From: Thermostichus sp. DRC_bins_24
GTDB taxonomy: Bacteria > Cyanobacteriota > Cyanobacteriia > Thermostichales > Thermostichaceae
DNA: 64,000 nucleotides
Direction of reading: 5' to 3'
Assembly: GCA_039794845.1 (NCBI GenBank)
Contig: JAUQVK010000101.1
Span: 33,225-97,224 of the forward strand
The notes below the pieces were generated by a model. The model worked only from the letters and a program-made list of their open reading frames with translations. It had not been told where the DNA came from and searched no databases. This document shows positions 669-48,064 of the stretch, one piece after another. A program made the position numbers and the translations under genes. The stretch's first letter is position 1, and the number at the start of each line of letters is the position of its first letter.

Positions 669-1256
669 ATGAGCCTCACCACCCAGAAACTGTCTTTCGC
701 CGAATACTTGACCTATACCGATGGCACCGACACTCGCTACGAACTGGTGGATGGAGAATTGTTGCCCATGAGCCTGGGAACGGGTCAGCATGGGGCGATC
801 ATCCGCTACTTGGTGCGTCGTTGGGAGAATGCTGCTTTATCCGCCCGCCGCCCTTGGGTGGTTCTTCCGGGTTTGGTGGGCATTCGTTCTCCCAGAGGTC
901 GTCGGTGGGACACCGTGCGTATCCCGGATGTAACGGTCATGGAACAGGGGCAATGGGAGGAAATGGCGGATCGAGAAGCAGTGATCGACTTCAATGAGCC
1001 TCCGCCACTGCTGCTGGCCGAGGTGGTCAGCCCTTCCACGCAACTGGAAGACTATCGCTCCAAGCGGGCAGAGTACGGCCTGTTGGAGGTGCCTGAGTAC
1101 TGGATTGTCGATCCGATAGCGGAGAAGGTAACGGTCTGTATCTTGGAGCATGGCTTTTACGACGCCACAGAATGGACTGGCTCCCAAGGGATCCCTTGTC
1201 AGGGCTTTCCTGAGCTGGTTCTGACGCCGGAGCAAATTCTGGCAGCCCAACTTTAA
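669..1256 (+). CDS. Uma2 family (PD-(D/E)XK-fold) protein
   Basis: [19 protein letters not shown] and Y...VPEYWIVDP motifs. Confidence 0.88.
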
Positions 1257-12900: not shown

Positions 12901-14892
12901 ATGCCTGTTCGTACCTATGCTGCCCCGCCCACCCCTTGGTCTCGTGATTTGGCGGAGCCTGATATCGACCCTTCTGCCTACGTGCATTCCTTCTCCAACT
13001 TGATTGGGGATGTGCGGGTGGAAGCGCAGGTGCTGATCGCCCCAGGAACTTCCATCCGAGCTGACGAGGGATCCCCTTTCCACATTGGCGAGAGATCCAA
13101 CATTCAGGATGGGGTGGTGATCCACGGTCTGGAGCAGGGGCGAGTGGTGGGGGAAGATGGCAAACCCTACTCCGTCTGGATCGGCAGAAACACCTCCGTT
13201 GCCCACATGGCTCTAATCCATGGGCCGGCCTACGTGGGCAACGACTGCTTCATCGGCTTCCGCTCGACGGTGTTTAATGCCCGGGTTGGGGATGGTTGCA
13301 TCGTCATGTTGCACTGCCTGATCCAAGATGTGGAGATTCCTCCGGGCAAGTATGTGCCCTCCGGCTCCATCATCACCACCCAAGCTGAGGCGGATCGGTT
13401 GCCCAACGTGCAGGACAGCGATGCCAAATTTGCCCAGCATGTGATCGGTATTAATCAAGCCCTGCGAGAGGGCTACCACTGCAGCGAGAATCTGGTCTGT
13501 ATCGCCCCGATCCGCAACGAACTGCAATCGAGAACCCATGACTCAACGGCTACGGAGACTGCAACCATGACTCATCCCTCCCATCGCGCCAACGGCTGGA
13601 ACGGTGGCGGATCCCATCTCAAGCCCGAGGTGGTGGAGCAAATTCGCGCCCTGTTGGCCCAGGGATATCGAGTTGGCTTGGAATATGCCGATGCCCGTCG
13701 CTTCCGTACCTCCTCTTGGCAAAGCGAAAGCCCGATCACCAGCACCCGTGAAGCCGAAGTGGTGCAGTCTTTGGGGGCAATTTTGGCGGAGCACCAGGGA
13801 GAATACGTACGCCTGTTGGGGATCGATCCCAAGGCCAAACGGCGGGTCTTGGAGTTGGTGATTCAAACCCCTGACGGGCCGGCCCAAGGCTCTGGGGTGC
13901 CCACCCGCGTCCCGACGGCCACAGGCTCTGGCTCTGCTGCATCGGGGGCATCTGGTACGGGTTCAAACCTAGAGGAGCAGATTCGCTCGCTGTTGGCACA
14001 GGGGTATCGCATTGGCTTAGAAGCTGCCGATGCCCGTCGTTACCGCACCTCCTCTTGGCAAACCCTGGGCAACTTCAGTGGTCAACCTCGCGACATTTTG
14101 GCCTCGATTCAAACCGCTCTAGCCCAGCATTCAGGGGAGTATGTGCGCCTGTTGGGGATTGATCCCAAGGCCAAGCGGCGGGTCTTGGAACGGGTGATTC
14201 AAACCCCCCAAGGCCGGGTGAGCAGCGGTTCTGCGGCGGTGAGCCATGCTGCTGGGGCTGCCCCATCGGCGGGGAGTGTCGCCGGGTTGGAACTGGGGCT
14301 GCAGGAAGAAGTGCACCGCCTCCTGGCCAAGGGGTACCGGATTGGCTACGAATATGCCGATGAGCGTCGCTTCAAGACCTCTTCCTGGAGGAGCGGCCCC
14401 ACCATTCGCGCCACCCGTGGGCCGGAGGTCTTGGTGAAGCTAGCGGCTGCCTTGGCGGAGCACAGCGGTGAATATGTGCGCCTGATCGGCATCGACCCCA
14501 AGGCCAAAAGGCGTGTGTTCGAGCAGATCGTTCAAACCCCTGGCAGTAAGTCGGCGGTCACGGGTACTGCCCCCACTCCCTCTGCCGCTGCCTCTTCTCC
14601 GGGCCGATCCCACGCCCCTTCCACGTCCACTCGCCTCGATGCCGAGGTTTTGGCTCAAGTGCAGCAGCTGTTGGGTCAGGGCTATCGCATCGGCACCGAA
14701 CATGCCGATAAGCGTCGCTTCCGCACCTCCTCCTGGCAAAGCTGCAGCCCGATCGAAGCAACCCAAATGCCCCAGGTGGTGGCGGCTCTGGAAGCCTGCC
14801 TGGATGAACATCGTGGAGAATACGTGCGCCTGCTGGGCATCGATACCAAGGCGAAACGGCGGGTGCTGGAGCAAATCATCCAAACCCCTTGA
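12901..14892 (+). CDS. ccmM: carboxysome assembly protein CcmM (gamma-CA domain plus four RbcS-like repeats)
   Basis: PPTPWS..., [22 protein letters not shown]; four repeats of GYRIG.E.AD.RRF.TSSW...EYVRL.GID..AKRRV. Confidence 0.97.
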
Positions 14893-14949
14893 GGGAGGGA
14901 TCCCTGTGTTTGGTTAACCTCTGTTCGGTTCGAGCCCGACCCCCTAGCA

Positions 14950-15612
14950 ATGAGGAGCATTTTGGCCGCTACTCTGCCAACCCCAATGGCGTTCAGTGTC
15001 TCGCCCGGCAAGATCAGCGAAACCCGCTATTTCGTTAGTGGTGAGGTGCATGTCGAGCCTGGGGCGGGAATCGGGGCAGGAGTGCTGTTGCGGGCCAATC
15101 CCGGCTGTCGCATTCAAATCGGGCGAGGGGTGTGTATTGGTATGGGATCCATCTTGCACGCCTGCGGGGGATCCCTGATCGTCGAAGCCGGTGCCACCTT
15201 GGGAACAGGAGTGTTGGTGATCGGTCAGGGCACCATCGGCAGCAATGCTTGCATTGGCTCGGAGACGACACTGCTGGATTGCTCGATTTTAAGCCAACAG
15301 GTGATTCCCCCCGGCTCTTTGATTGGGGATCCCAGCTATTCCGATGCAGCAACCGCCAGCGACCCCAACCCGCCAGAACCTGCGGAAGCACCCGCATCCT
15401 CAGAACCGACACCCCTTCCACCCCCGAGCTCCCCAGTGGCTAATGTGGAAAAACAAACCCGTCGCTGGCAGGAAGCTGCCGAGCAAGCCGAAGAAAATCC
15501 TCGCTCCAAGAAGCTCCGCAAACGGAACGGGATCCCGGGACATTCCGAGCTGGATCGGCTGCTGGGCAAGATTTATCCCCATCGACAGGCACTCTCCTCC
15601 AACGATGGCTAG
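14950..15612 (+). CDS. ccmN: carboxysome protein CcmN
   Basis: Left-handed beta-helix hexapeptides, Pro-rich linker and C-terminal encapsulation peptide (G..ELDRLL..IYPHR); exact start uncertain. Confidence 0.88.
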   Translation: MRSILAATLPTPMAFSVSPGKISETRYFVSGEVHVEPGAGIGAGVLLRANPGCRIQIGRGVCIGMGSILHACGGSLIVEAGATLGTGVLVIGQGTIGSNACIGSETTLLDCSILSQQVIPPGSLIGDPSYSDAATASDPNPPEPAEAPASSEPTPLPPPSSPVANVEKQTRRWQEAAEQAEENPRSKKLRKRNGIPGHSELDRLLGKIYPHRQALSSNDG

Positions 15613-15631
15613 ACTGGCATGAGTACGTAGG

Positions 15632-16354
15632 ATGCCGATGTCAACCTCTCTGGGCCTGATTCAAACCCGCAGTTTTCCGGTGATTGTGCGCATTGCCGAC
15701 GCCATGACCAAGTCGGCGGGAGTGATGCTGATCGGTTTTGAGAAAACCTCGGGGGGCTACTGCACGGCGATCGTGCGCGGGGGCATTGCCGATGTGCGCA
15801 TTGCCATTGAAGAAGGGATTGAGCTGGCCCGGCATTTTGATCAGGAGGAGCTCTCCAGTTTGGTGATCCCACGTCCCTTGCCCAACCTGGAAGTGGTGCT
15901 GCCGATCAGTAGTAAGCTTTCCCAACTGGCGCAAAACCGGGGCTATAGCCGCCTTAGCAACCTGGCCGTGGGTCTGCTGGAAACCCGGGGTTTTCCGGCA
16001 ATGGTGGGGGCTGCAGATACAATGCTGAAAACCGCTGATGTGCAACTGGCTGCCTATGAGACGATCGGAGATGGCCTCTGTACGGCGATCATACGGGGCA
16101 CTGTAGCCAATGTGGCCATTGCCATCGATGCGGGCATGTACGAAGCAGAACGGATTGGGGAGCTGCACGCCATTGCCGTCATCCCGCGTCCCCTCGACGA
16201 GTTGGAACAAGCCCTGCCCGTGGCCAGTTGTTTCGTGGCTCAGCCCGTCAGTCTGCCTGTGGCCATTCCCCAGGTCCAGGAACAGGAGGTGCAACGCAGC
16301 GAAACTGCAGTGGAGCGGATTCCGGTGTATCTAGAGCCGCCTGAAACTCCCTAG
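15632..16354 (+). CDS. ccmO: tandem-BMC shell protein CcmO
   Basis: Two BMC domains (SFP.IV..AD.M.KSA; ETRGFPAMVGAAD.MLK). Confidence 0.92.
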   Translation: MPMSTSLGLIQTRSFPVIVRIADAMTKSAGVMLIGFEKTSGGYCTAIVRGGIADVRIAIEEGIELARHFDQEELSSLVIPRPLPNLEVVLPISSKLSQLAQNRGYSRLSNLAVGLLETRGFPAMVGAADTMLKTADVQLAAYETIGDGLCTAIIRGTVANVAIAIDAGMYEAERIGELHAIAVIPRPLDELEQALPVASCFVAQPVSLPVAIPQVQEQEVQRSETAVERIPVYLEPPETP

Positions 16355-19543: not shown

Positions 19544-19700
19544 ATCCCTCTCTACAAAAATGGGTAAACTACCCGACTCCGACCGCTAAGCAGTACAGCG
19601 CGGGCTTTCAGCAGCCCTCCAGTTATCTCGCAAGACAACCAGGAACCTCCAGGGCGGTTTACAAGCGCCCCGATTGATTGAATGTTCTTTGCACCGTTAA
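19544..19700 (-). ncRNA. predicted omega-RNA (reRNA) overlapping the tnpB 3' end; guide from the flank CCATTTTTGTAGAGAGGGAT; 5' end unknown
   Basis: Inferred from established TnpB biology and the position of the right-end hairpin. Confidence 0.55.
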
Positions 19701-20766
19701 AATCCGCATCCCCTTGCCAACCGCAATGCCCACAAGCAAACTTCTTCCCCTGCCGATACGATTCACCCTGTTCGGGATGAATGTGCAAGCATTGGTGGCA
19801 AATCTGGCTGGTATAGGCAGGGTTGACCAAGATCAGCTTCACGCCTTCTCTCAGACACTTATAGGTCAAAAAGAGGCGAAGCTGGTAGAACGCCCAACTA
19901 TTACTGCGCCTACGCTCCGTTTTGTTGCGAGGCTGTTGGTTGGTTCGCTCTCGGATGCCGGTCAAATCCTCCAAGGCGATGCTGGCAGACAGAGATTTGG
20001 CAGTTTCAACGATGCGTCTCGAAACAGTATGACTCACCCAACTTTGGAACCGACGCTCACCACCAGACAACCGTTGCAGCAATCCACGCACTCGGCGGCG
20101 TGTACTGCGTGTGCCCTTACTGGCTTTGTGCTGGAGCTTGGCTCTCAAGTTGGCCAAGTGGTCTCGAACTTTGGTTATGGCTTGTCCATTCCAGTGCTGT
20201 CCCTCCGAAGTGTGAGCAATATCGGTACGCCCCAAATCTACGCCCAAAACCTGATTCCTCTCTTGCGGCTCTGGCGACTCTGCCTCCAGACAAATTTGGA
20301 GATAGTAGGAACCCTCTTGCCGCTTCACCAGAGTGGCAGACTTGGGGTGAGAGCCTTTCAGCATTCCCCGTTGGTAGTTGCCGATTGCTAGTTCAAACCG
20401 CTCACGCCCATCAACGGTGGTAATCGAAGCCGTCCAGTCTTTCTCCCGAAACGAGAAAATCCGAGCGTCATAGGTAACAAAGCCCGTCTTGAACGCTTTG
20501 ACCGGGCGATGCTTTTGTTTGGCCACTTGGCGAGAACCGGCAACTCGCCTGCACACCTGTTGAGCCAAGTTGCTCGACAGGCCAAAGCGAGCGCGAATCT
20601 CGTAGTAGCAAAGGGATTGCAGCTTAACTGCATTGACTATCTTCTCCGGTGTGTTCTGGTTCACCCAGTTCAACGCCTGCCCAAAAGCATCCAGAGTCGC
20701 ATCCAGTTTTGCGGCCTGCGATTCGGATACCTTGAGCTTGCAAGAGATAGTCAGGACTTGGTTCAT
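19552..20766 (-). CDS. tnpB: IS200/IS605-family RNA-guided endonuclease TnpB
   Basis: RuvC-I GVDLG, RuvC-II IALEDL, zinc finger CHQC...CGHC and RuvC-III DADFNGAKNI. Confidence 0.95.
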   Translation of the reverse strand: MNQVLTISCKLKVSESQAAKLDATLDAFGQALNWVNQNTPEKIVNAVKLQSLCYYEIRARFGLSSNLAQQVCRRVAGSRQVAKQKHRPVKAFKTGFVTYDARIFSFREKDWTASITTVDGRERFELAIGNYQRGMLKGSHPKSATLVKRQEGSYYLQICLEAESPEPQERNQVLGVDLGRTDIAHTSEGQHWNGQAITKVRDHLANLRAKLQHKASKGTRSTRRRVRGLLQRLSGGERRFQSWVSHTVSRRIVETAKSLSASIALEDLTGIRERTNQQPRNKTERRRSNSWAFYQLRLFLTYKCLREGVKLILVNPAYTSQICHQCLHIHPEQGESYRQGKKFACGHCGWQGDADFNGAKNIQSIGALVNRPGGSWLSCEITGGLLKARAVLLSGRSRVVYPFL

Positions 20767-37452: not shown

Positions 37453-38742
37453 ATGGCGCTGCGTTTTTGCAAGTCCCGCACCTATCACGATCCCCTGCAC
37501 GGAGCCATCAGCCTCGATGGAGGGGATGCAGTTGAGGCACTGCTCATTCGCCTGATCGATACCCCCGCCTTCCAGCGCCTGCGTCGGATTCGCCAGCTGG
37601 ACACCGCCTTTTTCACGTTCCATGGGGCGGAGGGATCCCGGTTTACCCATTCAGTGGGGGTATTGCACATCGCCCGGCGACTGTTCGACAAATTGGCCCG
37701 CCGCTACGTGGAGTTGCGCCCCTATCGAGCCGTGACCCTTGCCTCTGCCCTGCTGCACGATATCGGCCATAGCCCCTTTAGCCACGCCGGGGAGGAGATC
37801 TTCGGTTGCCACCACGAAGTCTGGACAGCTCGCATTTTACAAGAGGATCCCCAGGTGTCTTCGTTGCTGGCGGAGTTTGATCCTCAGCTTCCGACCCAGA
37901 TGCAGCAGGTGTTGCAGAAGCAGTTTCCCTTGCCGCTGGTGGGGCAGCTGATCTCCAGCCAGCTGGACTGCGACCGCTTCGATTACCTCATGCGCGATAG
38001 CCTGCTCACCGGTGCTCAGTACGGCCATCTGGATTTGGATCGGATTGTAACGGTGCTGGATTATGACCCGGAAACGGGATCCCTTGCCATTCCGGCCCGC
38101 AAAGGCTTGGGGGCAATCGAACATTACTTGGTGGTGCGCTATTTCATGTACACCCAGGTGTACCAGCACCCAAAAAGTTTGTGTGCCCGCTTCATTCTGG
38201 ATCGGCTGTTCAAACGGGCGCAGTTGTTGTTGCAAAAAGGGGAACTGGAACTGGATCCCGTCTTGACGGCTTGGTCTTGGGCTTCGCTGGCCGCCCAAAA
38301 AGGGGATCCCTTTGATTTGCCCTTGCCCCTCTACCTAGCGGCGGATGATGTGCTCTTTAGCTATCCGTTGCGCTTTTGGGCGATGTTTGCGGTTGACCCC
38401 ATTTTGTCGGATCTGTCGCGGCGCTACCTGGATCGGGATTTGTTTAAGGCCCGTAACCTCTCCCACTTGCCCGAAGACCGGCGAGAAAAACTGCTCGCCA
38501 CCGTCAGCGAGAAAATGCTGCGGGATGGACTGGATCCCGAAAGTTACCTAGGGATCCGCTCAGCCCACACCCAGGGCTACAGCCTCTACGCCCAAGGGAT
38601 CCAACTAAAAACCGACCGAGGTTACGAAGAAATTGCCGATCTCTCCCCCCTAGTGCGCTCCCTTGTAGAAACCCAACTGCAAGTCTGGTTGATCTTTCCC
38701 CGCCCCTACAGCGATATCGTCGAGGGGTTTTTGTATGCCTAA
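37453..38742 (+). CDS. HD-domain phosphohydrolase (dNTPase-like)
   Basis: DP.HG, FQRLRRIRQL, SRFTHS.G, LHDIGH.PFSH, D.DR.DYL.RD. Confidence 0.9.
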   Translation: MALRFCKSRTYHDPLHGAISLDGGDAVEALLIRLIDTPAFQRLRRIRQLDTAFFTFHGAEGSRFTHSVGVLHIARRLFDKLARRYVELRPYRAVTLASALLHDIGHSPFSHAGEEIFGCHHEVWTARILQEDPQVSSLLAEFDPQLPTQMQQVLQKQFPLPLVGQLISSQLDCDRFDYLMRDSLLTGAQYGHLDLDRIVTVLDYDPETGSLAIPARKGLGAIEHYLVVRYFMYTQVYQHPKSLCARFILDRLFKRAQLLLQKGELELDPVLTAWSWASLAAQKGDPFDLPLPLYLAADDVLFSYPLRFWAMFAVDPILSDLSRRYLDRDLFKARNLSHLPEDRREKLLATVSEKMLRDGLDPESYLGIRSAHTQGYSLYAQGIQLKTDRGYEEIADLSPLVRSLVETQLQVWLIFPRPYSDIVEGFLYA

Positions 38743-38766
38743 TGCACTTCAGATGGGAATGGGCGG
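38640..38766 (+). repeat. direct repeat B, copy 1 (HD gene 3' end plus 24 bp)
   Basis: 122/127 identical to 41216-41342. Confidence 0.95.
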
Positions 38767-38836
38767 AGCCTTTCGAGACTTATTGAGCGTGGAGTCGGGA
38801 TCTGCTCGGTAACCATCGGGTCCCTTACCAGGCTAG

Positions 38837-39364
38837 CTAAGCCGTAGGGGGCCACAGATGTCTAAACTTGAATCCAGTCAGGGGAGTAGACTGTACTTTC
38901 TCGATGAAACCATCGGTTACATAGGTGCGAACCAGCCGGGTTTCGGGAACCTTGAAGATGATATTATCTCCAATTTTATCCAGGCAGAATGCGGGCCGAG
39001 TGATGGAGCTGCGGTTTCGCCTTTGTGTCTCTTCTTTGTCCAAAACATCAATAATATTGGTAACGTTATAGGCGAAGCAAGTATCTTCCCCTTCATAAAT
39101 GAGCGGTAATAATTCCCCATTAGCCAATAAAATATCTCCGAGCAGGTCAACAGCCCTTTGGCTAACGACACTTCCAATCAAACCTGTAAAACAAGCTGGG
39201 AAGTCACTTTTTGGCCTGCTTTCATGATCTGGAATCAATGTGATTTTCAATGGGCTCCAACTAGTAATAGGATCCCCGTTGCAAAAAACTGGGTTTTCAA
39301 GTGATTCGTCAGAAAGAAATCCTTGGTAAACATTGGCGTCAGGATAAAGCTCGTAAACATTCAT
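38837..39364 (-). CDS. Imm11 (DUF1629)-like immunity protein
   Basis: SDFP...VVSQRA.DLL...GELLPL...YNVTNIID.LD...IFK.PE...YVTD.F...V....LTGF.F; AAGGAG RBS; immediately downstream of the AHH toxin. Confidence 0.78.
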   Translation of the reverse strand: MNVYELYPDANVYQGFLSDESLENPVFCNGDPITSWSPLKITLIPDHESRPKSDFPACFTGLIGSVVSQRAVDLLGDILLANGELLPLIYEGEDTCFAYNVTNIIDVLDKEETQRRNRSSITRPAFCLDKIGDNIIFKVPETRLVRTYVTDGFIEKVQSTPLTGFKFRHLWPPTA

Positions 39365-39390
39365 GGATATCTCCTTCACTTGGTCAGGGG

Positions 39391-40971
39391 CTATAAAATT
39401 GGAAAGGCTCGGTTGAGTAGTTGCTGCCTAATCTCTTCCAGTTCCTGTAACACTCCTTGTTTCCCGCCTGAAGCATCTTTCTCTGTTAGTCTGTTCCGCA
39501 CCTCCAGATGATAAACTATCGTATGAAGTGAAGCATGAGGCATTCCTTCCACTTGAGTTACTGAAGAGTCTGCGGGCAGAGGAACACCATTTTCTGCAGA
39601 GTTGATATCGATCCCATGCTTAGCTAGTATTCCGCGAGATTTTTCGGCATTAGCATCGTTCACAGCAACAATGTGATGGGCTTCTGCACCGCAAGGTAAT
39701 CTTTGATTGGTTGCCAGTTCAATCGCTCTTGCTAGTTTGGCTGAGTCACTGTTACCCGAAGCAGCAGGCCGCCGACACTCAATCAGAATGGTCAAATCTT
39801 CATCCTGGTCTAAGGCTTTACTGCCTTCGAAAATGCCTCTGGAAGCAGGTGAAGAAGATCCCAGAGGGCTGGGGCTTAGTTCTACATCATCGATTTGAAA
39901 GCCTAATGTACTTGGCTTTACTCTCCCTCCGGAGAGGCCCTTAATTGTTAAATGACTGTTATAAGAATCGAGATTAACTAAATTGCTCTCTACATAGCTC
40001 TCACCCAGAGCAATGTCATCTTCTGTTTGAATTGAACCCTGATTAGGCCCCGATAGAGCCTCTAATCTTAGCGCTATTTTGTCTCCATCTTGCAAAAGAC
40101 CGTTGTCTTGATACTTTATTTTGAAACTGTAGCTGCTTACAATCAACCGGGCAGGAATATTCTCTACATATTCAGATGGGACATCAGGGTCTAAGTTGAT
40201 CTCCACGGTCACCACGCGAGGGAACACGTTCCCCCCTGGAGAGAGGTTAAAACCTCTCGTACTTGTCCCTGATATGACCTGGCTAGGGTCAATACCAAAA
40301 CGTACCGTGGTAACTGGTACAACTCCATCGCTGTAGGCAATAATCTCGAGCTTATTCTTTCCTGGCTTGATTGGAACAATGACTTTCCCTGCATCTGAAC
40401 TCAGGGGACTGGGGAGAACCAGCCGTTTTAAGAACGTACTCGAAGAGGTATTTTCATGCTGTACAGTAATATCTACGATGTCACCATCTACAATTGGGGA
40501 GCCTGTTCTTGGATTGATCCCTGCATCCCAGAAGTACACAATAACTTCATCTGTATTGACGGTTAATTGAGGCGTTAGTATCCTTGCCTCATGTTTTTTG
40601 TCTTTATCTATGAGCTTGGGTTCAATACAGCTTTCAAGCTCAGGTGGAACAGGCTCTGTTGGCTCGAGTTCGACATCACAAGAGGGCGGTGGGGTTGGAC
40701 GATAGCAAACATTCTCCCCGACTTGGTTGCATGCGCACCCAGGTGGCTTATGGCACTGAAAGTTTGCGTTAATGCAGGTATCACCACAAGCTTTGCCAAC
40801 GACACATCTTCTGCAACACGTATCACAGGGTACTGGTACTCCATTGCCAGAACGGCTCACAGAAGGAGCTTGAACCTCAGGCAAACTCCCTATCGTGGTT
40901 GGACCCCCCCCGCAAGCATAAAGTGTCAGCAAAGAAAAGAGGAGTATAAATAACGTTAGATACTTGCGCAT
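39391..40971 (-). CDS. lipoprotein with Cys-rich domain, two beta-rich repeats and a C-terminal AHH (HNH/EndoVII-fold) nuclease toxin domain
   Basis: Lipobox LYA-C20; CCRRC..GKACGDTCI...C.K.PGCAC; AHHIV...GIDINSAENGV.LP...H...H...Y...V..RL. Confidence 0.85.
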   Translation of the reverse strand: MRKYLTLFILLFSLLTLYACGGGPTTIGSLPEVQAPSVSRSGNGVPVPCDTCCRRCVVGKACGDTCINANFQCHKPPGCACNQVGENVCYRPTPPPSCDVELEPTEPVPPELESCIEPKLIDKDKKHEARILTPQLTVNTDEVIVYFWDAGINPRTGSPIVDGDIVDITVQHENTSSSTFLKRLVLPSPLSSDAGKVIVPIKPGKNKLEIIAYSDGVVPVTTVRFGIDPSQVISGTSTRGFNLSPGGNVFPRVVTVEINLDPDVPSEYVENIPARLIVSSYSFKIKYQDNGLLQDGDKIALRLEALSGPNQGSIQTEDDIALGESYVESNLVNLDSYNSHLTIKGLSGGRVKPSTLGFQIDDVELSPSPLGSSSPASRGIFEGSKALDQDEDLTILIECRRPAASGNSDSAKLARAIELATNQRLPCGAEAHHIVAVNDANAEKSRGILAKHGIDINSAENGVPLPADSSVTQVEGMPHASLHTIVYHLEVRNRLTEKDASGGKQGVLQELEEIRQQLLNRAFPIL

Positions 40972-41215
40972 AACCGTTATTGGCTGGAGATATTTGCCTC
41001 AAAACTAAGTCGTTTTACAGGCCCATGCAAGCCTGAACTCATCTTTATTTTAATTTTTATTTTGCTTGATTTGAAATGATTAAGTGAATTAGCAAAGGGA
41101 TTTACTACTGATTAGGTATTTGATATTTTGATTCACAAATTACTTGCAATTCTTTCTCTTCCCAGTATCGGCTTTCCCCGCGCTCTGCCAAAGGCAATGT
41201 AGCGTTGGTTTCGTT

Positions 41216-41342
41216 TCTCTCCCCCTTGGTGCGCTCCCTTGTGGAAACCCAACTGCAAGTCTGGTTGATCTTTCCCCGCCCCTACAGCGATATCGTGGAG
41301 GGGTTTTTGTATGCCTAATGCGCTTCAGATGGGAATGGGCGG
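41216..41342 (+). repeat. direct repeat B, copy 2 (displaced HD gene 3' end)
   Basis: Continues directly into the RBS and start of the GT2 gene. Confidence 0.95.
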
Positions 41343-41351
41343 GAGAACGAC

Positions 41352-42554
41352 ATGTTGGAGGGCTTAGTGGGGGGGCAGGCTGGGATCCCTGGCTTACTTA
41401 TGGGGGTGCTGTCGATGACCGCCCTCCTGATTGGGCTGGTGGCCTTGCGGCTGTGGCGAGCTTTGGCGGCTTCCCCCTGGCTGACCGATGTCCCTGAAAA
41501 CAAAAACACCGAGGTTGCTGAGGCGATGGCGCGTGTGGCGGTGATCGTGCCCGCCTACAACGAAGCAGACAATGTGGTGGACTGCCTGACCAGCATTCTG
41601 GAAAGTACCTCGGCTCCGCTGCAGGTGTGGTTGGTGGATGATGACTCTACCGATGCCACCTGGGATTTGGCCCAAGCCTTGGCTGCCGACCGACCAGATC
41701 CGCGGCTGCATTTGTTAAAAGGGGATCCCCGGCCAGAGGGGCAGGTGTGGGTGGGCAAAAACTGGGCCTGTGCTCAGGCGGTTGCCGTCATTGAGGCAGA
41801 CTATCTGCTGTTTCTCGACTGTGATGTGCGGCTGGGATCCGGCGCGATCGAGGCAGCTCTGATGCAGCTGCTGGAAAGCGACAGTGGCTTGGTCACCGTG
41901 GGGCCGCAGTTGGTGTGTGGTTGCCTGGCGGAATGGCTGGTTCAGCCGATCATGATGACCCTTCTGGCGGTGGGGTACAACTTTGCCGCCGTCAACGATC
42001 CGGATACCCCAAAAGCCTTTGCCTTCGGGCCCTTTATGTTGTTCCGTCGCCTCGCCTACGAACAAATTGGCGGACACGCCGGGGTAGCCGATGTGGTGGT
42101 GGAAGATGTCACCTTGGGCCAGCGCATCAAAGCCAGTGGATTGGGACTGAAGCTACGCTTAGGTGGAGAACGGGTTCGCAGCCGCATGTATGCCGACGGG
42201 GCCGCCCTCTGGGAAGGTTGGACGAAAAACTGGTTTTTGGGTTTGGAGCGCAACTGGTTGCTGGCCCTGTTGGCCATGGTCACGATTTTGGTGATTTGCA
42301 GTTTGCCTTGGCTGGGGTTGATCCTGGCTTTGGCCACCCAATCTCTGGGGGTGCTGTTGGCCAGTTTGGCCGGGATCACGGCTCAACTGGGGATTCGACT
42401 GCTGCTCAGGCATTGGGCCCACTTGCCGCTACGCTACTGGTGGCTGACGGCGGTGGGGGGATGGGTAACGGCTGCCATCGTTTTGGCCTCGGCGATTCGC
42501 ACCAGCACCGGACGCAACTGGACTTGGCGGGGCCGATCTTTGGCCACCCCCTAA
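41352..42554 (+). CDS. family 2 glycosyltransferase (membrane-bound)
   Basis: VIVPAYNE, VDD.STD.T, W.GK.WAC, D.D, ED, W.GW.KN, W.WRGR. Confidence 0.88.
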   Translation: MLEGLVGGQAGIPGLLMGVLSMTALLIGLVALRLWRALAASPWLTDVPENKNTEVAEAMARVAVIVPAYNEADNVVDCLTSILESTSAPLQVWLVDDDSTDATWDLAQALAADRPDPRLHLLKGDPRPEGQVWVGKNWACAQAVAVIEADYLLFLDCDVRLGSGAIEAALMQLLESDSGLVTVGPQLVCGCLAEWLVQPIMMTLLAVGYNFAAVNDPDTPKAFAFGPFMLFRRLAYEQIGGHAGVADVVVEDVTLGQRIKASGLGLKLRLGGERVRSRMYADGAALWEGWTKNWFLGLERNWLLALLAMVTILVICSLPWLGLILALATQSLGVLLASLAGITAQLGIRLLLRHWAHLPLRYWWLTAVGGWVTAAIVLASAIRTSTGRNWTWRGRSLATP

Positions 42555-42662: not shown

Positions 42663-43952
42663 ATGCAAGTTCTGGTCATTGGCTCTGGGGGACGAGAACA
42701 CGCTCTGATTTGGAAGCTACTGCAATCCCCACAGGTTACTCAGGTTTACTGTGCACCCGGCAACGGCGGCATTCGCCAGATGCGCCGCTGTCAAACCTTG
42801 GCTTTGGCAGCCACGGATATTGAGGGGTTGGTGCGCTTTGCCACGGTGCAAGGGATCCGTCTGACGGTGGTGGGGCCAGAGGTGCCCTTGGTGGAGGGGA
42901 TCGTCGATGCGTTTCAAGCGGCAGGACTGCCCATTTTTGGGCCGAACCGGGTGGCCGCCCAACTGGAGGGCAGCAAGCTCTGGGCCAAGCAACTGATGCA
43001 AGAGGCCGGGATCCCAACGGCTCGTGCTGCCGGTTTTCAGGATTTGTCGGCGGCCCTGGCCTATCTGGATTCCCAGTCTTTTCCGCTGGTGGTGAAGATG
43101 GATGGTCTGGCGGCGGGCAAGGGGGTGACCATCGCCCAAGATCGCGAGGAGGCGGTACAGGCTCTACAAGCCGCACTGGCCCGGCCTTCTGGCTCTGTGC
43201 TGATCGAGGAGTTTATCTCCGGGCAGGAGGTCTCCGTACTGGCCCTGACGGATGGCCAAATCTGTGTGCCACTTTTGCCTGCTCAAGACTACAAGCGCAT
43301 TGGCGAAGGGGATATGGGGCCCAATACCGGTGGCATGGGGGCTCATGCTCCCGCGGATCATGTGCTGACACCGGCCTTGCTGGCTCGCATTCAAACCCAG
43401 GTGTTGGATCCCACCCTGAAGGGCCTCCGGCAACGGGGCATTCGCTACCAGGGGGTGATCTACGCCGGGTTGATGATCACGCCCTCAGGGGATCCCTACG
43501 TGTTGGAGTATAACTGCCGCTTTGGGGATCCCGAGGCACAGGTGATTTTGCCCCTGTTGAAAAACCCCCTCGAAGAGGTGCTGTTGGCTTGTGTTGAGGG
43601 GCACTTGGCCCAGATCCAGTTGCAGTGGAAACCGGGCTATGCCGCTTGCGTGGTGATGGCTGCACCGGGGTATCCCGAGAGTTACGAACGAGGGATCCCA
43701 ATCCTCGGCTTAGAGGCGGCAGCGGAAACTGGGGCTTTGATCTTTCATGCGGGCACTCGTCAGGCGGGAGGGCAGATCTTCAGCGATGGGGGGCGTGTCT
43801 TGTGCATCACCGGTCAGGGGGCCAGTTTACCGGAGGCCTTGGGCCAAGCCTATGCCGCGGTGGAGCGGGTGCAGTTTGCCAAAGCCCACTACCGGTTGGA
43901 CATTGGTAGCCGAGCGCTGGGAGCCGCTGTTCGTCGTGGTGTGGTGGAATGA
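42663..43952 (+). CDS. purD: phosphoribosylamine--glycine ligase
   Basis: GSGGREHAL, GLAAGKGV, QDYKR..EGD.GPNTGGMG, EYNCRFGDPE. Confidence 0.97.
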   Translation: MQVLVIGSGGREHALIWKLLQSPQVTQVYCAPGNGGIRQMRRCQTLALAATDIEGLVRFATVQGIRLTVVGPEVPLVEGIVDAFQAAGLPIFGPNRVAAQLEGSKLWAKQLMQEAGIPTARAAGFQDLSAALAYLDSQSFPLVVKMDGLAAGKGVTIAQDREEAVQALQAALARPSGSVLIEEFISGQEVSVLALTDGQICVPLLPAQDYKRIGEGDMGPNTGGMGAHAPADHVLTPALLARIQTQVLDPTLKGLRQRGIRYQGVIYAGLMITPSGDPYVLEYNCRFGDPEAQVILPLLKNPLEEVLLACVEGHLAQIQLQWKPGYAACVVMAAPGYPESYERGIPILGLEAAAETGALIFHAGTRQAGGQIFSDGGRVLCITGQGASLPEALGQAYAAVERVQFAKAHYRLDIGSRALGAAVRRGVVE

Positions 43953-44144
43953 AAATGAACCCCAGAGGGTCGCTCCTCCGGGGTCAATAAAAACAGTATT
44001 GAAAAGAGTTTTGATATTTAAAAAATAGCGCTTTTGATAACGAGAAAGCAATTTTAGTATCGGAACCTCAACTTTAGTTCATATTCCTCAATAAGAGCCG
44101 TCTCGGTTGCTTGGCTTAGGTTGAGAGGGAATAGGTAGGGATCC

Positions 44145-44615
44145 CTATTTCACGTTCAAACCTTCTGGCTTCAGCCCGAACTCTTGTAGGGCAGGCAGGA
44201 AATTCTTGTTCTCATGATTAGAGCGACTTAATTTAATGAGAGCAAATCGCTGGATATTCTGTAGTCTCCTCCAAAATTCTAGAGTAATCTGAACCTGTAT
44301 TTCCTCAGCCTTTTGTTGCACACTCAGTGGGATCCTCTCGGTATTTTCCCATTCAGGTTCTAGCTCTGGCATGAATTCTTTGGCTTCCTCTCTACAAACA
44401 GTATGGATCAACTGCCGCAAATAACTGCCAAACTGTTCAATATCCTGGGCAGTTTGATCAGGCCAGTCCACACACTGTTGTTTTTGTGCTGCCGAAAACC
44501 GAGCCCACTGATGGAGCTTCAGCTTGACGCCACACAGATCTAACTTCAGACGTACGCTCATGGGAATACAGCGCAGAGAATCGGCAAAATCCTGCTCAAA
44601 CTGAAACAGAGACAT
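44145..44615 (-). CDS. narM: nitrate reductase-associated protein
   Basis: F.FE.DF..SLRCIPM.VR.KLD.CG.KLKL..W and QRFAL.KLSR..HEN.NF; follows narB. Confidence 0.88.
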
Positions 44616-46770
44616 CCGAAACATCCTCGGTGATTAAACTCTCGCTCTCCAGTTTCGGTGAAAAAGGATCGGTTTTACTGAGGGCCACTGCACAAGCTTT
44701 TAATTCCGGCTGGCCGGAGTCTGGGCAAGCAATATCGTGGGTAAGGGCATTACACTCTGCTTGCTCTGCCCACAAGGATCCCCAGTGCATGGGCACAAAC
44801 ACCGTCCCTGGGGCAATGGCACGGGTGATCTTGGCGGGGAAACAGGCTTGTCCACGGGCGGAGCGTACCTGCACGGGATCCCCCTCTTGCAGGGCCAGCT
44901 TTTCGGCATCACGGGGATGAATTTCAATAAAGGGCTGTGGGTGCATTTGGGTGATTTTTTCGATTCTGCCGGTACGGGTTTGGGTGTGCCAATGACCATA
45001 CACTCTACCGGTGGTTAACACATAGGGAAATTGCGGATCCGGTGGCTCAGCCAATCCTTTGGAATGATAGGGGATGAATCGAGCACGGCCATCGGCAGTG
45101 GGAAAACGCAAATCAGTATAAAGCCGAGCTGAACCTGAAGTTTTATCTGGCAATCTATCCTTTGGATAGGGCCATTGCTGGGGGCCTTGTTCCGCCAAAA
45201 GAGCATGACTAAGGCCAGAGTGGTCACAGGGGCGATGTTGAGTCAGGGCAGCAAATTCAGCATACACTTCTGCTGAGCTTTGAAACTGAAATTGCTCTAT
45301 AAATCCCAATCTGCGACCTACTTCCGCAAGGATTTCCCAATCCGGTCGGGCTTCTCCAGGGGGATCCTGAAACTGTTGGCAAAGGGTGACCCGACGCTCG
45401 GAATTGGTCATGACCCCTGTTTTTTCACTCCATTGACAGGCGGGCAAAAGCAGATGAGCATATTCTGCCGTTTCGGTGGGGTAGTAGGCTTCTTGATAGA
45501 TGGTAAAGGGGGAGTTCTGCAAAGCCTTTTTAACGCGCTCTAAATCGGGCAAACTCACCAAGGGATTGGTTGCAGCAATCCAAAACAGTTGCAGGGATCC
45601 CGCTTCTAGGGCAGAAATCATTTGGGTGGCAGTCAGTCCTGGAGCAGGGGATATGGATCCATCGGGCAAGCCCCAAACCTGTTCTACTTCTGCGCGATGT
45701 TGGGGATTTTTCACAGAGCGATAGCCGGGCAAGAGATGAGACAATCCGCCTGCTTCTCGCCCTCCCATGGCATTGGGTTGACCTGTTAAAGAAAATGGCC
45801 CCATCCCCGGTTTGCCGATCTGCCCAGTCATTAGGTGGAGATTAATCAGGCTAACGATTTTGGCCGTGCCCTCACTGGATTGATTTAAACCCATTGACCA
45901 AAGGGAAAGAATTTTTCGGGATCCCTTCCAGAGCTGGGCGACCGCAATGACATCCTCAGGTGCAATTCCACATCGCTCGGCCACCGTCTCAGGATCATAA
46001 CTGGACAATAGAGCGGCATATTGGGCAAAGCCTTGGGTGTAATCTTCAATGAAGGGGGCCTCGATCTCTCCCCAGCGCAACAGCAAATGGGCGATGCCGT
46101 TAAACAGATCAATATCGCTACCAGGTTTAATTCCCAAATGCAAATCTGCAGCTTCTGCCGTTTTTGTCCTGCGGGGATCCACCACGATAATCTTGAGGGG
46201 GGATCCCAATCTATGTCTTTTTTTCAGGCGATTAAACAAAATCGGGTGACATTCAGCCGTATTGGTACCCACCAAAAAAGCCAAATCACACTCATCCAAA
46301 TCTTCGTAACAGCAAGGGGGGCCATCGGATCCCAGCGATTGAACATAACCCGAAACCGCCGAAGACATACACAAACGAGAGTTGGCATCAAAATTGTTGG
46401 TTCTTAGACATCCTTTAATCAGTTTCTGGGCCACATAGTAATCTTCCGTCAGGAATTGCCCGGAGCCGTACATTGCCATCGCATCAGGGGTGGCTTGCAA
46501 ATCTTGGATGCGGGTGGTGATTTTCTGTATGGCTTGATCCCAAGAGATACGCCGAAAAGGTTGATCCAATCTCTCTCGGAACATGGGGTAAAGCAGTCGA
46601 TCTCGGTTGACCGACTCCATGATCGTGGCACCCTTAACACACACCATCCCCAAACTTGAAGGATGCTGCCGATCTCCACGAATTTTCCAATCTCCTGCAG
46701 GAGTGGGAACGGCCTCTAATCCACACCCCACTCCACAATAGGGGCATTGGGTCTTAATCACTTCTGTCAA
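44596..46770 (-). CDS. narB: ferredoxin-nitrate reductase
   Basis: [40 protein letters not shown] start. Confidence 0.95.
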
Positions 46771-47129
46771 GAGTGATCTCCCTTCTCAGATAAATCCTGA
46801 AAAATCTCTTCGAGCTTTATCCTCAGATCGGCAAGGTCTCCTTCGACAATCTCCCAAATTACCTCCAAGTTAAGCTGAAAGTATTGATGAATTAAAACAT
46901 CTCTAAACTTAGCAATTTTACTCCAGTCAACTTCTAGGTGGTTTTGACGAAACTCGTCAGGAATATTCTTGACTGCCTCCCCCATAACTTCAAAATTGCG
47001 AATCACAGCATCTTGAATAAGACTGGATCCCATAAATTGCTCTTCCCCAGAAGAGGTGTATCTTTGGATCTTTGTAATTGCGTTGATCATATCTTGAATA
47101 TAGAGACGCAAATCTCACTTTCCACTCAT
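46767..47129 (-). pseudogene. HepT-like (DUF86) HEPN RNase toxin with TGA at codon 5 (possible restart at TTG 47111)
   Basis: ATG AGT GGA AAG TGA GAT TTG CGT CTC TAT...; the HEPN motif R-x4-H (RDVLIHQY) is intact downstream. Confidence 0.7.
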
Positions 47130-47476: not shown

Positions 47477-48064
47477 CTAATTCAGCAGTTCAGAAACTGC
47501 AATCTCAAACCCCGGCAAGATCTCTCGGGTTTTGGCTATATCCTTCTCAGTTAGCCAAAGGTTTTGCTCTTGAGTTTGAATGAAAAGATGTTTGCTTTTA
47601 GGAAAAACCAGCCAAACTTCTAAAGCTCCAGAGCCAAGGTATTCCTGCGCCTTCAGAAAGATATCTTCTCCACTATCTGTTGGAGAAATGATCTCCCCAA
47701 TCAAGGGATAGCTTTGGGGCAAAAAGGTAAACTCGCCATATCGTTCCAACAGTTCTGCCGGGAGATAAGCAACATCTGGCTTGCGCCCCCGCTCAAGAGT
47801 ACGACAGTCCGGCTCAACCAATACCCTCCCACCCAGTTGCTGAGACTGAACAAAAGTCCGCCAGTGGAAATAAAGATTGCCTTGGATATTGCTATGCTGA
47901 AAACCCACGCCTGTTTTCTCCACTAGTTTTCCATCTACCCATTCGTGGTTCTCTACTGGGTTGGCGAGATATTCCTCCAAAGTCTTGGGAAGGGCTAAGG
48001 CAAGATCCTCGATTTCGGGATCCCTTTGCTGAGGTGGAGCTGGCTGAACTTGGGCAATCACCAT
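47477..48064 (-). CDS. Uma2 family protein
   Basis: EWVDG.L.E, RKPDVAY, EIISP.D, K..EYL..G..EVWLV.P, LPGF. Confidence 0.87.
   Translation of the reverse strand: MVIAQVQPAPPQQRDPEIEDLALALPKTLEEYLANPVENHEWVDGKLVEKTGVGFQHSNIQGNLYFHWRTFVQSQQLGGRVLVEPDCRTLERGRKPDVAYLPAELLERYGEFTFLPQSYPLIGEIISPTDSGEDIFLKAQEYLGSGALEVWLVFPKSKHLFIQTQEQNLWLTEKDIAKTREILPGFEIAVSELLN

Follow-up and report, generated by a model that had tools for sequence, protein, structure and literature searches.

A putative lipoprotein-anchored AHH nuclease toxin and its Imm11-like immunity gene on a repeat-flanked insertion in a Thermostichus genome

A nuclease domain at the end of a predicted lipoprotein, with a candidate immunity gene directly behind it, raises the question of whether a cyanobacterium carries a protein weapon against its neighbours, and by which route such a protein could act on another cell. 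The two genes, here referred to as the toxin gene and the immunity gene, lie in a stretch of 64,000 nucleotides (the window) of Thermostichus sp. DRC_bins_24 (assembly GCA_039794845.1, contig JAUQVK010000101.1, positions 33,225 to 97,224), and their features are collected in Table 1. We propose that they probably represent a horizontally acquired two-gene polymorphic toxin-immunity cassette serving antagonism or self-recognition. To our knowledge, much has been learned about interference competition by protein toxins in proteobacteria, Bacteroidota, Bacillota and myxobacteria, and very little in cyanobacteria. Hot-spring populations of Thermostichus/Synechococcus serve as a model of diversity and recombination at a fine scale, and a strain-variable killing and immunity cassette at a defined chromosomal site would be a testable determinant of which genotypes are able to coexist.

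The nuclease domain and the putative immunity protein

The C-terminal part of the toxin matches the Pfam family AHH (PF14412) over residues 427-518, with an E-value of 8.7e-16 and 58.3 bits (cut-off 22.3). Residues A431, H432, H433, N461, H479, H483 and Y487 are invariant in an alignment of eight sequences (the toxin and seven relatives). These residues agree with the published Tox-AHH signature [AG]HH, N, H, H, Y (PMC3482391), and the active-site signature is intact. The AHH-type nuclease recognized in a preliminary description of this DNA is thereby confirmed, and the domain can be assigned to Tox-AHH; its metal-dependent DNase activity and its toxicity are predictions from the family. From residue 410 onwards the module shares 37-39% identity with the tips of RHS proteins encoded on seven plasmids, and AHH modules are also carried by RHS and HINT-bearing proteins (P0004-P0006 and six Burkholderia plasmid RHS proteins; P numbers denote homologous proteins).

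The product of the downstream gene has 175 residues when counted from an ATG; a GTG at 39379 would lengthen it by 5 residues. The preliminary description had placed an Imm11-like gene with its own ribosome-binding site (RBS) 26 bp behind the toxin gene. The gap and the RBS stand as described, but the Imm11 assignment falls below the Pfam cut-off (scores are given below) and is carried by other comparisons instead. On a Burkholderia anthina plasmid (NZ_CP126319.1) a gene for an RHS-AHH toxin, 38.8% identical to our toxin module, is followed by a gene annotated as DUF1629. This gene (L080:2879-3439) encodes a true Imm11 protein (Pfam 1.7e-14). The immunity protein aligns to it with 27% identity over 106 residues by BLASTP (E 3e-8), and by hhalign with a probability of 76.9% (E 2.1e-5) over 143 collinear columns, near its full length. 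In addition, the ESM Atlas model of the immunity protein (predicted template modelling (TM) score 0.86) gave Imm11 in 28 of 30 feature matches, with a top score of 0.93, and its structure matches were Imm11 clusters with TM scores of 0.86 and 0.77. An AlphaFold2 (AF2) model built from 3 rows was unusable (predicted local distance difference test, pLDDT, 32.6). Taken on these comparisons, the immunity protein appears to be a divergent Imm11 relative that fails the curated cut-off.

A model of the complex between toxin residues 395-526 and the immunity protein reached a score of 0.66, compared with 0.01 for the best of 3 controls. The mark that this pair passes was attained by 116 of 157 solved complexes and by 2 of 215 mismatched pairs; contact agreement between the runs was at least 37%, and partner pLDDT at least 85. 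The modelled interface comprises toxin residues 484-489, which adjoin the catalytic H483 and Y487, together with the C-terminal helix, and the model supports binding of the immunity protein to the toxin domain. The pass is not obviously due to memory, because no solved structure was found when the PDB was searched by sequence for the immunity protein and Imm11, albeit that likeness at the fold level is possible. The earlier identification of an AHH/Imm11 toxin-immunity pair is therefore supported by the Pfam match to AHH, the Atlas matches, the alignments to a true Imm11 and the complex model.

The modelled interface also bears on the differences between close relatives. Four of the five differences between the toxin domain and that of homologue P0001 fall within it (27 of 126 residues; hypergeometric p 0.007, post hoc), and co-variation of toxin and immunity protein at the interface is possible. 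Compared with its homologue P0008, the immunity protein is 63% identical over residues 1-62 and 95% identical over residues 63-175. This pattern points to recombination, or to diversifying change, within the N-terminal part, a region that helps to form the modelled interface. The same mosaic divergence is seen in comparison with P0161.

Table 1. Coordinates of the cassette and its flanking repeats in the window
Feature	Position	Strand	Basis or remark
Left 127-nt direct repeat	38640..38766	+	Last 34 codons, stop and 24 nt beyond of HD-domain gene
70-nt spacer, left end of cassette, repeat to immunity stop codon	38767..38836	.	Alignment with uninterrupted site in L001 breaks here
Immunity gene, divergent Imm11-type (predicted), 175 aa, no signal peptide	38837..39364	-	Pfam below cut-off, Atlas, BLASTP, hhalign, complex model
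Intergenic gap, 26 nt, with AAGGAG RBS for immunity gene	39365..39390	-	Sequence inspection
Toxin gene, 526 aa	39391..40971	-	
Linker helix and AHH (HNH/EndoVII-fold) nuclease domain, toxin residues 401-526; exchangeable toxin cassette	39394..39771	-	Pfam, signature residues
Second beta-rich segment (predicted), toxin residues 271-400 (DGD at 295)	39772..40161	-	P0002 matches 267-404
First beta-rich segment (predicted), toxin residues 126-270 (DGD at 162)	40162..40596	-	Common to EndoU-bearing homologues; P0010 matches 3-269, E 1.6e-45
Cys-rich mini-domain, toxin residues 49-81, core GKACGD(T/S)CI	40729..40827	-	HMMER matches, module statistics
Predicted signal peptide, lipobox L-Y-A-C20, toxin residues 1-20	40912..40971	-	Rule match in window protein, P0001 and P0010
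AT-rich right end of cassette upstream of toxin gene, GC about 0.38-0.46, presumed promoter region	40972..41215	.	
Right 127-nt direct repeat	41216..41342	+	Non-coding duplicate of HD gene 3' end

The lipoprotein signal and the carrier region

The N-terminus of the toxin has two Lys/Arg residues among residues 1-7, followed by a hydrophobic stretch that closes with the lipobox L-Y-A-C20. The lipobox was tested by a PROSITE rule coded for this analysis, which is also satisfied by homologues P0001 (88% identical; Cys20) and P0010 (39% identical; Cys24). Some public gene calls begin the toxin at residue 38 (e.g. P0162, 489 residues). The 37 residues upstream of this start are kept as signal peptide and lipobox in P0001 and P0158, and an analogous sequence is present in P0010 and P0160; the long form is favoured because the upstream signal peptide is conserved in both branches of the family. 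The open reading frame (ORF) of 526 codons and the type II signal reported earlier are thus upheld. We predict from these features that the toxin is an exportable lipoprotein precursor, which would be acylated and located at a membrane.

The choice of start also bears on whether the pair could be a cytoplasmic addiction module, similar to a toxin-antitoxin system, in which translation from the GTG at residue 38 gives a protein that is not exported and only stabilises the cassette. The public records that hold the toxin from residue 38 would fit such a module, as would a cassette without mobility genes, which could persist by addiction. We consider it very improbable, given the conservation of the upstream residues as a lipobox signal. 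Moreover, a module with nine cysteines would suit an oxidising compartment, and an N-terminal region of 400 residues would be left without a role.

A HMMER search with toxin residues 1-405 against 1.84 billion representatives gave 588 matches at E<=1e-3. Among the best 150 of these 588 matches, only P0010, P0011 and P0002 extend past toxin residue 150 (spans in Table 1). P0010 shares 39% identity with toxin residues 3-269, P0011 is a fragment of a near-identical protein from a Thermostichus metagenome-assembled genome (MAG), and P0002 is an AHH protein from a Cyanobacteriota MAG. P0010, its full-length cluster mate P0160, and P0164 and P0165 agree with the toxin in signal peptide, Cys module and first beta segment, and all terminate in an EndoU_bacteria domain with scores above cut-off; they originate from Synechococcaceae MAGs or unnamed records. 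The preliminary description had proposed to look for the same N-terminus joined to other C-terminal toxins, and EndoU in place of AHH in related cyanobacterial MAGs is such a case. The scaffold carries either a DNase or an RNase, and the family is therefore polymorphic. On this comparison the pair qualifies as a polymorphic toxin system in the sense of Zhang et al. 2012.

Homologues of toxin and immunity protein were found on contigs of equal size in four cases (96,472, 12,515, 114,415 and 3,404 nt). The 114,415-nt case is, judged by sequence identity, the window's own genome, and in the 3,404-nt case the accession numbers are adjacent. As judged from these contig sizes, the toxin-immunity pairing recurs on four contigs, far beyond chance, and both genes also have homologues. 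The first 18 residues of toxin homologue P0159 are unrelated, and it is without the signal peptide and half of the Cys module. Its contig size (96,472 nt) equals that of immunity homologue P0008, and P0159 is possibly a disarmed toxin of which the immunity has been kept.

The Cys-rich module has cysteines at positions 49, 52, 53, 56, 62, 66, 73, 79 and 81, in agreement with the earlier description; eight of these nine lie within a repeat unit of 30 residues. This unit (GKACGD[ST]CI ... PPGCAC) was found in 588 representative proteins at E<=1e-3, and had no match in Pfam, NCBIfam or the PDB. It forms the extreme C-terminus of 102 of the 144 proteins that match a regular expression for it, and 94 of these 144 proteins have at most 130 residues. 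Its fusion partners elsewhere are SNase, Endonuclease I, SH3_3, LTD, N_BRCA1_IG and ankyrin domains, and P0003 has about 10 repeats of it. The proteins with this module include P0003, P0007 and P0013-P0157. The mini-domain is of separate interest, as it occurs in hundreds of secreted proteins and has no family match in the libraries searched.

The fusions of the Cys module to SNase (P0142, P0154) and Endonuclease I (P0007) are what could be expected if the toxin were not a weapon, but a membrane-tethered nuclease of the periplasm that scavenges extracellular nucleic acid or processes incoming DNA, the downstream protein being a cytoplasmic safety inhibitor. Nucleases with such inhibitors are known, i.e. 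NucA/NuiA of Anabaena and barnase/barstar. Such a role would also agree with the lack of delivery genes nearby, and with a lipoprotein that faces the periplasm when the Lol system is lacking. We nevertheless regard it as improbable. The cassette is accessory (absent from 7 of the 7 closest loci, see below) and of foreign composition, the same scaffold bears an EndoU RNase in other genomes, and the nuclease domain has its nearest relatives at the tips of RHS toxins, with Imm11 encoded next to them. AHH and Imm11 are, moreover, catalogued as polymorphic toxin and immunity families in the available text of PMC3482391.

The remainder of the carrier consists of two segments that are predicted to be beta-rich, for which Pfam and NCBIfam gave little guidance: no family in either library covers toxin residues 1-426, the first beta-rich segment has no Pfam family, and in NCBIfam nothing scored above cut-offs for either the toxin or the immunity protein. 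The second segment is shared, among the matches listed and besides close homologues such as P0001, only with the AHH protein P0002. It is also the most variable part in comparison with P0001, with 79% identity, where the first segment has 94% and the toxin module 95-100%. A motif D..DGD.I/V, which the preliminary description had assigned to each segment, is absent as written; a DGD followed by x[IV] is nevertheless present at 162 and 295. An origin of the two segments by duplication was rejected on their mutual BLASTP E-value of 24. Their beta character derives from an AF2 model of the whole toxin that is of low confidence (mean pLDDT 42.7 from a 6-row alignment). A fold search of the PDB with this model was uninformative, with only matches of TM about 0.1, to tandem beta-sandwich adhesins. 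By sequence, the toxin had a single weak match in the PDB, to an Rhs-family protein (8cm0_A, E 0.36). An Atlas search with toxin residues 120-400 gave no usable feature match, and structure matches of TM<=0.52 to unnamed Bacteroidota clusters.

Between carrier and nuclease, a block E-C-R-R-P...P-C-G that includes Cys399 and Cys427 is conserved in P0002. In the HINT-bearing relative P0006 the toxin module starts just past the position of this block, and one might speculate that the block is the release point of the toxin module.

The insertion and its direct repeats

The cassette consists of 2449 bp of foreign DNA of low GC content, plus a target duplication of 127 nt. GC at third codon positions (GC3) is 0.40 and 0.43 in the two cassette genes, versus 0.65-0.73 in the five housekeeping genes around them, which extend from RNase J to PurD. 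The direct repeats at the two ends are 96% identical, with 5 differences over 127 nt and a spacing of 2576. The left copy belongs to an HD-domain gene (37453..38742, + strand) that is intact, and the right copy is continued by the native sequence upstream of a GT2 glycosyltransferase gene (41352..42554). This discrete, repeat-flanked insertion is an addition to what the preliminary description contained.

The copies are only 87% identical to the nearest relative. Compared with locus L001, the functional copy has three derived changes, all of which are synonymous by our own reading. An origin of one copy from a donor allele is unneeded, in view of the higher identity of the copies to each other and the synonymous nature of the three changes. 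A continuation of the repeat at lower identity into the start of the GT gene was rejected by a shuffle test (score 13, shuffle mean 13.4), and the 70-nt spacer likewise showed no significant similarity to the DNA on the right-hand side of the other copy. Promoter-like sites at 41075-41047 and 41191-41164 were no more numerous than in shuffled sequences, and the same holds for terminator-like sites.

A scan of species-representative genomes with the HD protein identified 79 loci, and the toxin, the immunity protein, an EndoU homologue and P0002 had no match at any of these 79 loci. In seven of them, considered the closest, the HD protein has an identity of at least 85% (L001-L006 and L023). The cassette is absent from the site in all seven, and each has a single copy of the repeat. 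In four of these (L001, L003, L004 and L023) GT and PurD come directly after the HD gene. In the remaining three, GT is fragmented (L006) or missing (L002), or the downstream neighbourhood is a different one (L005). The interval between HD and PurD looks like a hot spot of gene gain and loss, because the GT2 gene is itself variable, being absent in L002 and fragmented in L006.

The cassette carries no integrase or transposase gene, as judged from the window's 47 larger ORFs, and no tRNA gene was found in the window; the cassette DNA had no similarity to phage and plasmid records, and Rfam gave nothing at E<=1 over positions 38000-42000. The observed structure would result from one crossover that joins a circular molecule to the chromosome at 127 nt of shared homology, and the pair is best read, from its composition and its repeats, as a horizontally acquired cassette. 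A small nuclease-inhibitor pair that moves horizontally and sits in a variable locus might also recall an anti-phage system, in which an abortive-infection nuclease is held in check by an inhibitor. This possibility is scarcely credible: no PADLOC model matched either protein at E<=0.01, the toxin has an export signal, and phage DNA similarity is lacking.

Possible routes of delivery and comparison with known systems

RHS, PAAR, HINT and VgrG domains and a CdiA-type filamentous haemagglutinin region were found neither in the toxin itself nor beside it. Contact dependence, kin discrimination and a SitA-like exchange route, as suggested in the preliminary description, are analogies. An outer-membrane lipoprotein toxin could be passed on by SitA-like exchange, by vesicles or by shedding, and cyanobacteria do release outer-membrane vesicles. 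The architecture would match that of SitA (a lipobox, a flexible stretch, an N-terminal domain of about 375-400 residues and a C-terminal nuclease), and the residue after the Cys predicted to be lipid-modified is Gly and not Asp. In addition, the SitAI5 family of M. xanthus is described in the available text as having eight ahh-imm11 loci (PMC8546572; PMC12077181). Nevertheless, delivery of the cassette toxin in this way seems unlikely. The available texts report the Lol system to be practically absent from Terrabacteria, including Cyanobacteria, and Synechocystis to be without many Lol homologues (bioRxiv 10.1101/2021.05.31.446380; PMC5033237). A SitA-like route over the outer membrane is doubtful because cyanobacteria are largely without Lol. 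Delivery of SitA requires sorting of lipoproteins to the outer membrane as well as TraAB, and SitA homologues were, according to the text available, not found outside the Myxococcales and only in species with traAB (PMC5562445). None of the window's 47 larger ORFs is TraA/TraB-like. SitA escort domains are described as determining the entry pathway (PMC8546572, as available). The N-terminal 426 residues of the toxin had no match at E<=1 to SitA6 (PF09533), the only one of the six SitA families whose escort domain has a library model, or to any other family. Proteolytic release in the flexible linkers, followed by bacteriocin-like uptake, would be no less plausible than membrane exchange or vesicles.

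With SitA5/SitI5 of Myxococcus xanthus the cassette shares a type II signal with a lipobox and a flexible stretch behind it, an N-terminal domain that is specific to the family and several hundred residues long, an exchangeable AHH (PF14412) C-terminus, an Imm11 gene directly downstream, and horizontal acquisition, which is frequent for SitA5/SitI5. In contrast, the N-terminus of the cassette toxin has no detectable relationship to anything named, and it has two predicted beta-rich domains and a Cys mini-domain. The cassette also lacks an upstream gene like sitB, there is no TraAB in the window, and the host phylum is reported to be without Lol. The modular SitA families comprise at least 37 toxin types in the available text (PMC8546572), compared with two so far in the cassette family. 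From this comparison the cassette is best read as architecturally like SitA5, but not as a SitA member. The RHS-AHH/Imm11 pair of B. anthina mentioned above has a homologous toxin module and a homologous immunity gene directly after it, but there AHH is the tip of a large RHS shell, whereas here it is the end of a lipoprotein of 526 residues without RHS, PAAR or HINT.

Nuclease colicins and pyocins (E9/Im9) combine an N-terminus for receptor binding and translocation with a C-terminal DNase of the HNH superfamily and a tight cytoplasmic immunity protein, and need no injection machine. Colicins are no lipoproteins and leave the cell with the help of lysis proteins, whereas the cassette has no lysis gene. 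The APD1/APD2 effectors of Amoebophilus asiaticus, compared here by their description in the available text of Zhang et al. 2012 (PMC3482391), resemble the toxin in having a signal with lipobox, a conserved N-terminus and polymorphic C-termini, but their predicted target is a eukaryotic host, on which they would act from the surface of the endosymbiont.

The reading that we prefer, a polymorphic toxin-immunity cassette for antagonism or self-recognition, has to be held against several observations that speak against it. First, the immunity protein reaches only 16 bits against Pfam Imm11 (PF07791 / DUF1629), where the cut-off is 22.1 (E 0.0078), and its relatives P0008 (18.0 bits) and P0161 (17.7 bits) are also below this cut-off. 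Positions at which the immunity protein differs from P0008 show no excess in the modelled interface (5 of 29, p 0.32). Secondly, polymorphism is limited, with just two C-terminal toxin types found in a tiny family. Thirdly, the carrier domains have, as far as the models go, no recognisable fold, given the low pLDDT and fold-search TM scores and the lack of a usable Atlas match. Furthermore, the partners of the Cys module elsewhere include nucleases of the ordinary secreted kind (SNase, Endonuclease I), an association that is just as compatible with a nuclease without an antagonistic role. Finally, none of the 47 larger ORFs of the window has RHS, PAAR, VgrG, CdiA/B or secretion-system domains, just as the preliminary description had noted for the neighbourhood, and in a phylum reported to be without Lol the lipoprotein may never reach the outer membrane.

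For such a cassette we propose the following mechanism. The toxin would be made as a pre-lipoprotein, exported by Sec, acylated at Cys20 and held on a membrane facing the periplasm. Its N-terminal 400 residues or so would form a family-specific carrier, consisting of a flexible linker, a Cys mini-domain stabilised by disulfides or metal, and one or two beta-rich domains. By analogy to the SitA escort and to the receptor-binding and translocation domains of bacteriocins, this carrier could guide the C-terminal module to a neighbouring cell and effect its entry. Residues 401-526, assigned to their family as described above, would act there as a metal-dependent DNase that degrades DNA in the cytoplasm of the target. 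Because the immunity protein is presumably cytoplasmic and the toxin exported, the DNA to be cut would belong to another cell or to a producer that no longer has immunity. According to the complex model, the cytoplasmic Imm11-type protein would bind the nuclease beside its catalytic His and Tyr and protect producers and their kin. Strains without the cassette would be sensitive, and the cassette would be a marker of self-recognition and a means of antagonism at the strain level among closely related mat cyanobacteria.

The mechanistic question posed by such a system is how a lipoprotein toxin could work in a diderm without a Lol pathway. A further, rather unlikely, extension is that the shared scaffold of lipid anchor, Cys mini-domain and beta domain is in itself enough, independently of Lol, to carry nuclease toxins from one cyanobacterial cell into the cytoplasm of the next. 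Strains in hot-spring mats would exclude one another by this route, and the cassette, which lacks an integrase, would spread between them through host recombination at its 127-nt repeats. If true, this would be the first system for delivery of protein toxins between cells in cyanobacteria. In the literature on cyanobacteria or Thermostichus and toxins, as far as its text was available, no description of a nuclease toxin-immunity or lipoprotein-toxin system was found, in line with the preliminary description, though Tox-AHH and Imm11 are already listed as occurring in cyanobacteria (Zhang et al. 2012, PMC3482391, as available). The papers listed for a lipoprotein toxin with an immunity protein and a nuclease concern myxobacteria, save for one on ColM and one on megaplasmids. 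The interest of the locus lies mainly in the carrier scaffold, the host phylum and the repeat-flanked insertion.

Some other features were identified in the window. An ORF at 19552-20766 (-) with Cas12f1-like TNB and OrfB_IS605 domains represents a TnpB-type IS200/IS605 element, and ORFs for putative restriction endonucleases of the Uma2 family are found at 669-1256 (+) and 47477-48064 (-). At about 43900-46800, a nitrate reductase gene and an associated small gene have gene GC of 0.45-0.51 and GC3 of 0.48-0.49, below their flanks, and may represent a second region of foreign or distinct origin. The carboxysome-related genes at 12901-16354, encoding a CcmM-like protein with RuBisCO small-subunit repeats and a BMC-domain protein, are ordinary cyanobacterial content and therefore confirm the chromosomal context.

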